Sequence record: MG748547
Origin: Escherichia phage EP75
Strand: one strand, 5' to 3'
Length of the DNA stretch: 64,000 nucleotides
Shown here: positions 48,532 to 49,857 of the stretch, piece by piece
How positions within the stretch are numbered: position 1 is the first letter of the stretch
Layout of the letters: every line of letters starts with the position of its first letter
Program-made: the position numbers and the translations under genes
Notes under the pieces: model-generated
What the model saw: only the letters and a program-made list of their open reading frames with translations
Told to the model about the DNA's origin: nothing
Database searches by the model: none

Positions 48532-49857
48532 TCAATCAGGGGTAAACTCGTTCACAGGAACTTGTTCCGGCATAGACAATTCGGGGCATGCTGCCTTCAT
48601 TGACTCAATATATGGCTTGCTACCCACAATCCAGAACAGAGTATTTTCGTTGAGCAGTTCTGGCTTATGCTGTTGGATCCAGGTCATGACCTTGCCTTCA
48701 TAGCGTGGATGCAGCTCAATATCGCCCCACTGATAATCCATCAGGTCATTATAGCGAACCCAATTCGTTGTGTGTAAATCCCAATGGTGTACTGCAAAGC
48801 GTGGGAGCGTTATCTCCGGCTCTCCCTTCTCGCGGATACCCATCAGGAGGCCAGCCAGCGAAACGCTCTTAGAGGCATGCTGAAGATCCTTCTTGCCGTA
48901 CACATAATCTGGGTTGTCGTGATAGCAACGAGTGAAATCCGTTATGTGTGGAAGATTAGCTTGTTTTCCAATAACACGCAAACGGCTTTCAATAAAGTCC
49001 AGACGGTTGGGACCAATCCCGATCAGATATACATTTTTCAGATTCGGTTTCGGGTGCATAGCCAGCCCTGTCAAAATGCTGGTACAAGAATTACATGAAC
49101 CCGCAGGAATGATCAGATCTGTGATATGGTCCGGAATGTTAGCAACCTGCTCGCCGCCCAGCATATGGAATCCTGCAATTCGCTCCGGAGAATGCAACGT
49201 ATGATCCAAAGTGATCCCATATTCTAGATAATATGCTTTTGGATTCTGCTGCTCAATCAATTTCTTGCAGCGCGGTTGGATAGTGCTGTTGTAACCCGAA
49301 CCGACGAAGTTGAATTCGCTGCCGAACCATGCACTCATCTTAACCATATCGTGGTTCATACAGGTGGTTGGTTTGGTCGCGCCCAGGACTGTAGTTGTCT
49401 TGCCGCCAAAATGCCGAGAGACTGCCGTCGCCATAGGGGACTGCGGACTACCAACAACAGTGCCATGGATAAGGTCGGGGGAGCCTCCGACCTTGAGGTG
49501 CTCAACCATCAGCCAGATGGCCTGACGCAATTTACTACCATTGATCCCCTGCTTACCATTCATATAACAAGACAGCGGCGCGAAGTAATCTTCACGTTTG
49601 AACCAGACCTGCTGATTGGTTTCGGGGTTGGCAACGAGTTCGCACGGGGTGTGTTTGTAGAGGTAGTCTTCCCAGTGAATGATATTTCTATCAAGTGAGA
49701 GAGCATTGAAGATTGTTTTACGCCCTGCCATAAGGGCGTCAGGGGTATATGGGGCAAAGATGATACCTTCTTTCGCCATCTCTTCTTTTAGAGTAGTGGC
49801 CAAGAGTTCTTCCACTTCTTCACCGTGTAAAATTTCTTGTTCGGATGTAGGCTTCAT
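48532..49857 (-). CDS. PLP-dependent fold-type II enzyme (ACC-deaminase/Trp-synthase-beta-like)
   Basis: WFKREDYFAPL...NGSKLRQ mirrors KRED..GGNK(T/L)RK with the PLP lysine. 441 aa. Confidence 0.6.
   Translation of the reverse strand: MKPTSEQEILHGEEVEELLATTLKEEMAKEGIIFAPYTPDALMAGRKTIFNALSLDRNIIHWEDYLYKHTPCELVANPETNQQVWFKREDYFAPLSCYMNGKQGINGSKLRQAIWLMVEHLKVGGSPDLIHGTVVGSPQSPMATAVSRHFGGKTTTVLGATKPTTCMNHDMVKMSAWFGSEFNFVGSGYNSTIQPRCKKLIEQQNPKAYYLEYGITLDHTLHSPERIAGFHMLGGEQVANIPDHITDLIIPAGSCNSCTSILTGLAMHPKPNLKNVYLIGIGPNRLDFIESRLRVIGKQANLPHITDFTRCYHDNPDYVYGKKDLQHASKSVSLAGLLMGIREKGEPEITLPRFAVHHWDLHTTNWVRYNDLMDYQWGDIELHPRYEGKVMTWIQQHKPELLNENTLFWIVGSKPYIESMKAACPELSMPEQVPVNEFTPD

Follow-up and report, generated by a model that had tools for sequence, protein, structure and literature searches.

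The closest described counterpart of the gene considered here, an open reading frame (ORF) on the minus strand of a 64,000-nucleotide stretch of Escherichia phage EP75 (record MG748547; "the window" below means this whole stretch), is the gp226 gene of Salmonella phage ViI (Vi01). According to the first report (Lee et al., PNAS 2018; PMC5889632), lysates with gp67, gp160, gp226, gp243 and gp247 turn DNA containing 5-hydroxymethyl-deoxyuridine (5-hmdU) into DNA containing 5-(2-aminoethoxy)methyl-deoxyuridine (5-NeOmdU), a base that is also found in native ViI DNA (same report) and in native CBA120 DNA. The follow-up study (Lee et al., NAR 2021/2022; PMC8989533) traces the side chain to serine and identifies gp247 as a serine:DNA transferase. 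When gp226 was left out, a nucleoside 44 u heavier (345 u) was obtained. Purified gp226 was yellow, with a band at 410-425 nm, and turned O-serinyl-thymidine (O-SerT) in DNA into a product of 301 u, one labelled carbon being lost. Phyre2 threading on the structure 1j0a pointed to K92 as the predicted aldimine lysine.

The second characterised DNA decarboxylase, gp52 of Pseudomonas phage M6 (YP_001294560), is a pyridoxal phosphate (PLP)-dependent C-alpha-glycinyl-thymidine decarboxylase. It falls into the same reaction class and also acts on a DNA-tethered amino acid; unlike the pathway discussed here, it uses a C-linked glycine provided by a radical-SAM isomerase and yields 5-(2-aminoethyl)-deoxyuridine (5-NedU). 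More distant but structurally informative are 1-aminocyclopropane-1-carboxylate (ACC) deaminase and D-cysteine desulfhydrase, in which PLP is bound to Lys51 and a tyrosine (Tyr287/294) stacks on its ring (Bharath et al., PMC3344862). The same paper places the carboxylate of ACC deaminase Glu295/296 at the pyridine nitrogen, where most fold-type II enzymes have Ser or Thr, and argues that a carboxylate there should raise electron withdrawal and stabilise the quinonoid. For the untranslated leader of the gene, the relevant precedents are T4 gene e (lysozyme) and I-TevI, for which a hairpin that sequesters the ribosome-binding site and carries a promoter in its 5' part has been shown experimentally (PMC3014915).

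The gene, its predicted catalytic residues and its variable N-terminal part lie at the following positions:

48532..49857, minus strand: coding sequence of 441 amino acids with an ATG start, predicted PLP-dependent O-serinyl-thymidine (DNA) decarboxylase, orthologue of ViI gp226 / Vi01_182 / YP_004327553
49531..49533, minus strand: codon of K109, the predicted PLP Schiff-base lysine, equivalent to ViI gp226 K92, M6 gp52 K36 and ACC deaminase K51
48697..48702, minus strand: codons of Y386 and E387, which align with Tyr294/Glu295 of Pseudomonas ACC deaminase by a weak local alignment
49720..49857, minus strand: N-terminal extension (residues 1-46) that varies between lineages; Agtrevirus/Taipeivirus orthologues lack it, and ViI has a different one

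The ORF 48532-49857 is a real gene. From residue 47 onwards, its product and ViI gp226 align without gaps, with 387 of 395 residues identical (98%), and K109 pairs with ViI K92. The ViI gene (Vi01_182, orf00226) occupies the syntenic position, the common order being orf224 - gp226 - ... - PolB - gp243 - gp247. Apart from the eight substitutions, the two proteins differ by an unrelated 29-residue N-terminus that replaces the first 46 residues of the window protein. We therefore regard the gene, with high confidence, as coding for the Ackermannviridae (Kuttervirus) DNA O-serinyl-thymidine decarboxylase, predicted to be the last enzyme of 5-NeOmdU thymidine hypermodification; this function is supported by the activity shown for the 98% identical ViI orthologue. 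An earlier note on this DNA, made from the letters alone, had suggested decarboxylation of a serine-derived thymidine adduct as a possible role. The suggestion is correct and already published, as it is the very activity of gp226. Since the window protein is a direct orthologue of a published and biochemically characterised protein, the finding as such is already known, and the window adds only another copy.

The note had also placed the gene in a replication/modification neighbourhood, and this description holds. Three neighbours are directly relevant to the pathway:

39963..40868, minus strand: 5-hmdU DNA kinase, orthologue of ViI gp243 (86% identical; Pfam HMUD2 PF18747, E = 7e-150)
37971..39206, minus strand: amino-acid:DNA transferase, orthologue of the ViI serine:DNA transferase gp247 (91% identical; Pfam ADDT PF18724, E = 2.5e-57)
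42363..45461, minus strand: family B DNA polymerase (Pfam DNA_pol_B and exonuclease domains, PHROG 262)

By orthology with ViI, the kinase acts two pathway steps before the decarboxylase and the transferase makes the decarboxylase substrate. Both the steps that make the substrate and the decarboxylase itself are thus represented in the window. The window also encodes an NT5C-like protein, topoisomerase II subunits, an ATP-dependent ligase and a DnaB-like helicase. A hydroxymethylase for deoxyuridine monophosphate, the source of 5-hmdU, was not found among the scanned ORFs of the window, and its gene is probably located outside it.

As in ViI, the phage polymerase would incorporate 5-hmdU, and the kinase would phosphorylate its hydroxymethyl group to give 5-phosphomethyl-deoxyuridine. 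The serine hydroxyl would then displace the phosphate in the transferase reaction, yielding O-SerT with a free alpha-amine, from which the decarboxylase would strip the carboxylate to leave 5-NeOmdU. If the published ViI values apply, about 40% of T would be replaced and many host nucleases would be blocked. The family chemistry suggests that PLP is held as an internal aldimine on K109, that the alpha-amine of the DNA-tethered serine takes over the cofactor by transaldimination, and that departure of CO2 leads to a quinonoid; protonation at C-alpha and displacement of the product by K109 would complete the cycle. The enzyme thereby completes a hypermodification that shields Ackermannviridae genomes from many restriction enzymes, and it is among very few known PLP enzymes that act on a base inside polymeric DNA.

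A single-sequence search against PDB sequences returned nothing relevant (only a spurious CDC25 match, E = 0.44), so a family profile was required to obtain PDB matches. The profile was built from 66 homologues with 41-93% identity, in which K87, D90, N106, G107, K109, R111, S137, P138, Q139, Y386, E387 and K389 are invariant. It reached the ACC deaminases 1rqx (E = 3.2e-5) and 1f2d (E = 4.5e-5), followed by D-cysteine desulfhydrase (E = 8e-3) and 1j0a (E = 0.09). In the profile alignment, fKREDyfAPl...NGsKlRq falls on AKREDCNSGL...GGNKTRK, with K109 on K51 and S137-P-Q139 on S78-N-Q80. In the 441-residue ORF the corresponding peptides WFKREDYFAPL and NGSKLRQ occupy residues 85-95 and 106-112. 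The KRED...GGNK signature that the earlier note had read from the sequence, including the Schiff-base lysine, is therefore far beyond chance, given the profile, the fold and the conservation of the lysine. The last point was extended with an alignment of 110 sequences (the query, M6 gp52 and 108 cluster representatives at most 50% identical to each other), in which 107 of the 110 have K in the K109 column and the other three a gap. The loss of the lysine on alignment, which the earlier note had named as evidence against its reading, is thus not seen.

An AlphaFold (AF2) model based on the 66-homologue alignment had a mean predicted local distance difference test score (pLDDT) of 89.7 and a predicted template modelling score of 0.85, with low confidence at residues 1-45 and around 320-350. 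The model has a two-domain fold like that of tryptophan synthase beta, and helix 107-122 follows strand 82-88, so that K109 stands at the start of the helix after the KRED strand. Foldseek ranked Salmonella D-cysteine desulfhydrase (4d8t, E = 6.6e-11) first among PDB entries, then ACC deaminases (1tzk) and the Pyrococcus homologue 1j0a; serine dehydratase, SbnA, the tryptophan synthase beta subunit (TrpB) and O-acetylserine sulfhydrylase followed lower down. Altogether there were 319 matches with E <= 0.001, with probability 1.0 for D-cysteine desulfhydrase, ACC deaminase, serine dehydratase, TrpB and O-acetylserine sulfhydrylase. No solved structure of gp226 or M6 gp52 was among the PDB sequence, profile or Foldseek matches. 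From the profile and the model, the window protein is predicted to be a fold-type II PLP enzyme, in agreement with the earlier note and with a match to the Pfam PALP family.

The ACC deaminases and D-cysteine desulfhydrases (1rqx, 1f2d, 1j0a, 4d8t) are the best profile and structural matches, with K51 and Ser78 on K109 and S137 in the significant stretch of the alignment, Gln80 on Q139 and, tentatively, Tyr294/Glu295 on Y386/E387. The window protein nevertheless shares only about 15% identity with them and has extra segments (around residues 300-355 and at the N-terminus). Its presumed substrate is a base in polymeric DNA that undergoes alpha-decarboxylation, whereas theirs undergo ring opening or beta-elimination. 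Because the activity of the orthologue is decarboxylation on DNA, we did not classify the protein as an ACC deaminase or D-cysteine desulfhydrase. M6 gp52 has the KRED...SK(I/L)R motif, in which its K36 pairs with K109, and towards its C-terminus a Tyr-carboxylate-x-Lys motif as well. The likeness is remote (hhalign E = 1.5e-4; 278 versus 441 amino acids); BLASTP of gp52 against the window protein was not significant, and the link comes from profile comparison alone.

The C-terminal motif suggests how a fold-type II scaffold could support decarboxylation. HPtYEGK of the family aligns with DPVYEGK, which puts Y386-E387 on Y294-E295 of Pseudomonas ACC deaminase and on Y295-E296 of the Hansenula enzyme. 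In the 110-sequence alignment, Y386 is kept in 109 sequences and K389 in all 110; position 387 holds E in 108 sequences and D in M6 gp52. Because Tyr-Glu is kept throughout the family (Tyr-Asp in M6 gp52), we infer that E387 provides for the electron sink in alpha-decarboxylation: its carboxylate would take the role of ACC deaminase Glu295 and hydrogen-bond to the pyridine nitrogen, which would make PLP a sufficient electron sink in a fold otherwise used for beta-chemistry. The ACC deaminase-type Tyr-Glu/Asp pair may be what enables decarboxylation in a fold-type II enzyme. To our knowledge, the other PLP decarboxylases are of fold type I or III. A role of the E387 type is not mentioned in the accessible parts of the papers by Lee et al., and E387 at the pyridine nitrogen is a specific residue hypothesis that possibly goes beyond the literature.

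Some observations weigh against parts of this picture. The Pfam PALP match (PF00291, residues 68-293, E = 4.4e-7, 30 bits) stays under the 35-bit gathering cut-off, and no NCBIfam model matched the window protein. The alignment stretch that equates Y386/E387 with ACC deaminase Y294/E295 is not significant when taken alone, so this equivalence is less firm than that of the lysine. Finally, the 46-residue N-terminus is unlike that of the assayed ViI protein. Since the assayed enzyme carries a different extension, the extension appears to be dispensable for the chemistry.

A megablast search with the gene matched 269 phage records, every one Ackermannviridae-like, from phages of Salmonella, Klebsiella, Escherichia, Dickeya, Shigella, Erwinia, Serratia and other hosts. 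The top matches were Salmonella phages Se-H, Se-I, Se-J and Se-N (99.2%), and the Se-H protein has 100% amino acid identity to the window protein. In PHROGs, the protein matches phrog_3650 (E = 1e-239, function unknown there), with the profile match beginning at residue 46. A search across 5.8 billion proteins gave 685 matches, and a full HMMER pass yielded 356 clusters at E <= 0.001 from 1.84 billion cluster representatives. Among the family are several proteins of 730-1278 amino acids in which the decarboxylase domain is embedded. Their size is consistent with the kinase/decarboxylase/transferase fusions that Lee et al. report.

The leader of the gene is conserved to an unusual degree and folds into a hairpin. 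The relevant elements are:

49858..49923, minus strand: ultra-conserved 66-nt leader between the upstream gene and the decarboxylase ATG
49857..49911, minus strand: predicted RNA hairpin with a 12-bp inner and a 6-bp outer stem and a perfect 10-bp core (49865-49874 / 49895-49904)
49865..49869, minus strand: Shine-Dalgarno (SD) sequence AGGAG, located 7 nt ahead of the ATG and forming part of the 3' hairpin arm
49884..49911, minus strand: candidate promoter TTCTAT-N16-TATGAT, with the -10-like TATGAT (49884-49889) in the hairpin loop

The core is a perfect 10-nt inverted repeat (CTCCTGTAGA/TCTACAGGAG, at 49865-49874 and 49895-49904) around a 20-nt loop, and the outer stem extends to the A of the AUG. 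The predicted fold has a free energy of -25.1 kcal/mol (z = -5.4; none of 200 shuffles was as stable), ranks first in stability among the 71 gene-upstream 68-mers of the window, and lies at about the first percentile of random windows. Pairing probability across positions -14 to -5, the SD region, is 0.79. The statement of the earlier note that the SD is sequestered by a hairpin at 49865-49904 is therefore well founded: AGGAG sits in the 3' arm of a stable and strongly conserved structure.

Conservation was quantified in nine genomes from four genera (Kuttervirus, Limestonevirus, Agtrevirus, Taipeivirus) over 70 nt from (G/C)AGATTCTCC to ATGA (71 alignment columns, owing to a 1-nt insertion in one genome). 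Only six columns vary, and mean pairwise identity is 97.9%, versus 83.7% for the opening 240 nt of the conserved coding core and 65% for its third positions. The difference implies strong selection on the leader sequence, and a constraint this far above that of the coding sequence is an observation possibly useful beyond the literature. A 301-nt query spanning the junction matched 265 phage records, once in each genome, and for most of these the alignment is confined to 49853-49932, at 95-98%. The ViI leader is that of the window save for the first base. An exact scan of viral contigs for the loop returned only 13 near-identical loci and added no variation. A 13-nt partial copy of an arm at 39400-39412 was considered as a second copy of the hairpin and rejected, as its position is within a coding sequence and the match is no better than chance (E = 0.055).

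More distant relatives keep the layout to a varying extent. In Serratia phage Kevin (Miltonvirus), whose protein is 67% identical, a hairpin with different arms has the same layout (z = -4.9), and Erwinia phage Bue1 has a weaker one (z = -2.9); neither can be aligned pair by pair with the window hairpin. A TAnnnT element (TATGAT, TACAAT, TACAAT and TATAAT) precedes the ATG by 26, 26, 26 and 24 nt in the window, Kevin, Bue1 and the Vibrio-phage relatives, respectively.

The earlier note had called the hairpin "promoter-containing". This part of its reading stands only partly: TATGAT is in the loop with TTCTAT 16 nt upstream, and a sigma-70 scan calls no promoter there. We compared the element with other sites in the window. 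The EspM4VN genome paper (PMC7283392) cites TTCAAT[N14]TATAAT and CTAAATAcCcc as regulatory motifs typical of these phages. Exact matches to TTCAAT-N13-18-TATAAT number 4 in the window versus 0.12 expected. When two mismatches are allowed, ten sites of this type lie just upstream of a gene on the correct strand, one being 49884-49911. The other nine, all with 14-16 nt between the boxes, are:

1113-1140, 3801-3827 and 5306-5331, plus strand: promoter-like TTCAAT-N14-16-TATAAT-type sites just upstream of genes
26348-26373, 34596-34621, 37720-37745, 42337-42362, 50646-50671 and 55738-55763, minus strand: promoter-like sites of the same type

At all nine except 5306, the -10 hexamer lies in a hairpin loop by virtue of an inverted repeat, so that, with the decarboxylase leader, a hairpin is centred on the hexamer at 9 of 10 sites (52-nt windows folded). 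The mean minimum free energy of the ten sites is -16.1 versus -8.4 kcal/mol for 2000 random windows (Mann-Whitney p = 5e-4). With 9 of 10 sites of this form, a predicted promoter inside a hairpin is a recurrent layout in the genome, and the decarboxylase leader is a divergent member of the set. The SD is also contained in the 3' arm at the decarboxylase gene and at the ligase gene (3801-3827). The pattern is seen only with the two-box motif upstream of genes and with folds that allow mismatches: perfect stems of at least 6 bp around exact TATAAT were not significantly enriched (6 of 54, versus 0-13% for control hexamers). Sites 34596 and 37720 resemble intrinsic terminators with a T-run, and these two may be overlapping terminator-promoter units.

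Comparison with the other sites and with the relatives supports, without proving, a promoter within the decarboxylase hairpin, which is plausible on these grounds. The leader fold would bury the SD, and, less certainly, a weak promoter would have its -10 element in the loop. Transcripts starting 5-9 nt past TATGAT would lack the 5' arm and have a free SD, while in read-through transcripts from the co-directional genes upstream the SD would be buried. Only its own transcripts, and not the read-through ones, would then yield the enzyme, by analogy with T4 gene e and I-TevI. The resemblance to these systems lies in the SD in the 3' arm, in a promoter-like element whose transcripts would lack the 5' arm and in the position within a co-directional array with possible read-through. 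The difference is that in T4 the late promoter (TATAAATA) is proven and 5' ends have been mapped, whereas the promoter in the window is predicted and of the early-like TTCAAT/TATAAT type.

Several results count against this promoter hairpin. The consensus scan for sigma-70 promoters and terminators called neither at the hairpin, and 49884-49911 does not match the motif TTCAAT-N14-TATAAT, having two mismatches and a 16-nt spacer. No usable Ackermannviridae transcriptomes or mapped promoters were found in the literature. There is no true base-pair covariation, as the stem is near-invariant across the four genera; one variant (C-G to U-G) keeps its pair, two alter loop bases, and one (A-U to A-C, a natural variant in IME250) breaks the pair beside the loop. 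The two Vibrio-phage relatives (51% identical) have no hairpin before the homologue.

A hairpin without an internal promoter is the alternative for the leader, which we consider less likely than not. The leader might then act as the RNA operator of a translational repressor, influence processing or stability of the mRNA, or function at the DNA level, for instance as a recombination anchor, which could also explain the N-terminal indel hotspot described below, like T4-type PeSL cassettes. All 66 nt including the loop are conserved (97.9%), more than stem, SD and -10 element should require; the consensus scan is as expected from such a reading; and the different in-frame insertions of each lineage begin right after ATG-A, as for a recombination anchor. 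On the other hand, the leader is single-copy in each genome and so is not a dispersed cassette, and Rfam has no match to it (no family at E <= 1 over 48000-51000). The spacing between TAnnnT and the ATG is constant in distant relatives with differing surroundings, and 9 of the 10 recognisable promoter sites of the window share the layout with the -10 hexamer in the loop. We therefore keep the promoter-containing hairpin as the preferred reading of the leader.

For the enzyme, the alternatives fare much worse. The substrate could be the same DNA-bound serine with a different outcome, either beta-elimination, which would erase the adduct, or beta-replacement, which would swap the leaving group and was among the options of the earlier note. 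Such chemistry is usual for fold-type II enzymes (ACC deaminase, D-cysteine desulfhydrase, O-acetylserine sulfhydrylase, TrpB), and O-SerT should offer a beta-alkoxy leaving group. We nevertheless find it very improbable: in PMC8989533, the product of the ViI orthologue is 44 u lighter, keeps the aminoethoxy group and has lost one labelled carbon, and the reported presence of 5-NeOmdU in native ViI and CBA120 DNA is in line with decarboxylation instead. A free-amino-acid threonine/serine ammonia-lyase (dehydratase) unrelated to DNA, as GenBank names for orthologues suggest ("putative threonine ammonia lyase", "threonine dehydratase", "threonine deaminase") and as serine dehydratase and TdcB among the lower Foldseek matches might be taken to indicate, hardly merits consideration, as these names are homology transfers, the nearest structural relatives are ACC deaminase and D-cysteine desulfhydrase and not threonine deaminase, the gene travels with the DNA kinase and the DNA transferase, and the ViI protein, which is 98% identical, has O-SerT in DNA as its substrate and is needed for 5-NeOmdU formation (PMC8989533). 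DNA O-serinyl-thymidine decarboxylase thus remains the preferred assignment.

A second type of hairpin may serve other genes. The Viunalikevirus motif CTAAATACCCC is present in three exact copies, and a fourth has one mismatch (four at <= 1 mismatch, versus 0.67 expected):

48515-48525, minus strand: exact copy, followed by the gene at 48043-48492
59879-59889, plus strand: exact copy, followed by the gene at 59923-62964
63004-63014, plus strand: exact copy, followed by an ORF starting at 63044
48036-48046, minus strand: copy with one mismatch

At the exact copies, ATACCCC forms the 5' arm and GGGGTAT the 3' arm, which contains the SD at 2-4 nt from the ATG. The CTAAATACCCC sites, presumed to be late promoters, follow the design of T4 gene e. 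The Ackermannviridae design may thus comprise two classes of hairpins burying the SD, an early-like one (TTCAAT-N14-TATAAT, with the -10 element in the loop) and a late one (CTAAATACCCC, in which the motif itself is the 5' arm). If this is true, each gene of a co-directional array with mixed timing would be translated only from transcripts of its own promoter, and synthesis of the decarboxylase would be tied to a defined phase of infection. According to the CBA120 paper (PMC3184105), early and middle promoters of ViI-like phages were not identifiable and the late consensus was unknown; the hairpins that would bury the SD are concrete candidates for mapping them.

Behind the near-invariant leader, the N-terminal extension varies between lineages. 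The window extension has pLDDT values of 48-75 in the AlphaFold model and lies outside the PHROG profile match. An in-frame indel hotspot immediately follows ATG-A, and lineages differ by their insertions at this point. At least five N-terminal variants are found among Ackermannviridae, with 0 to more than 100 extra residues. Agtrevirus EspM4VN, Taipeivirus phages, YX22 and selz begin with MNKTIF..., ViI has 27 extra residues, and the window, Se-H and bering have 44. Shigella phage MK-13 represents a further variant that has IFAPYTPDALM in common with the window protein, and Dickeya phage Ds9CZ has a much longer annotated N-terminal region with weak matches to treble-clef zinc ribbons. We considered the internal M43 as the true start and rejected it, as no SD precedes M43 and the upstream ATG with AGGAG-N7 is kept in all lineages. 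The lineage-variable peptides may be swappable targeting modules. That all three ideas hold together, namely genome-wide burial of the SD by promoter hairpins, a role of the Tyr-Glu/Asp pair in decarboxylation, and swappable N-termini, is a tentative proposal, which we judge somewhat more apt to fail than to succeed as a whole.

Further features of the window are listed below:

48043-48492, minus strand: 149-aa gene immediately downstream of the decarboxylase (Pfam ART-PolyVal, E = 1.6e-10, 42 bits, cut-off 31; DUF3990)
49927-50604, minus strand: gene upstream of the decarboxylase (ViI orf00224), with a sub-threshold NDUS4 match (E = 3e-4, 21 bits versus a 32-bit cut-off)
51918-52733, minus strand: three tRNA genes (Tyr-GTA, Asn-GTT, Met-CAT) upstream of the tail-needle / orf224 / decarboxylase array
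16193-16855, minus strand: 220-aa protein with weak N-terminal matches to the PP-loop ATPases QueC (E = 4e-5) and ThiI (E = 3e-4)

ART-PolyVal is an ADP-ribosyltransferase found in polyvalent proteins; the ViI counterpart of the 149-aa gene is annotated merely as hypothetical or "phage associated". The doubtful "ETC complex subunit" annotations in some GenBank records can be traced to the sub-threshold NDUS4 match. The 220-aa protein may, judging from its PP-loop matches, be a nucleotide- or base-modifying ATP pyrophosphatase. Outside the window, an uncultured 183-kb phage contig (CAYODJ010000001.1, 10001-15213) encodes a 43% identical homologue of the decarboxylase directly upstream of an ADDT gene, followed by a 258-aa gene of unknown function and a 713-aa GT2 glycosyltransferase. 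This cluster may elaborate the thymidine adduct further.

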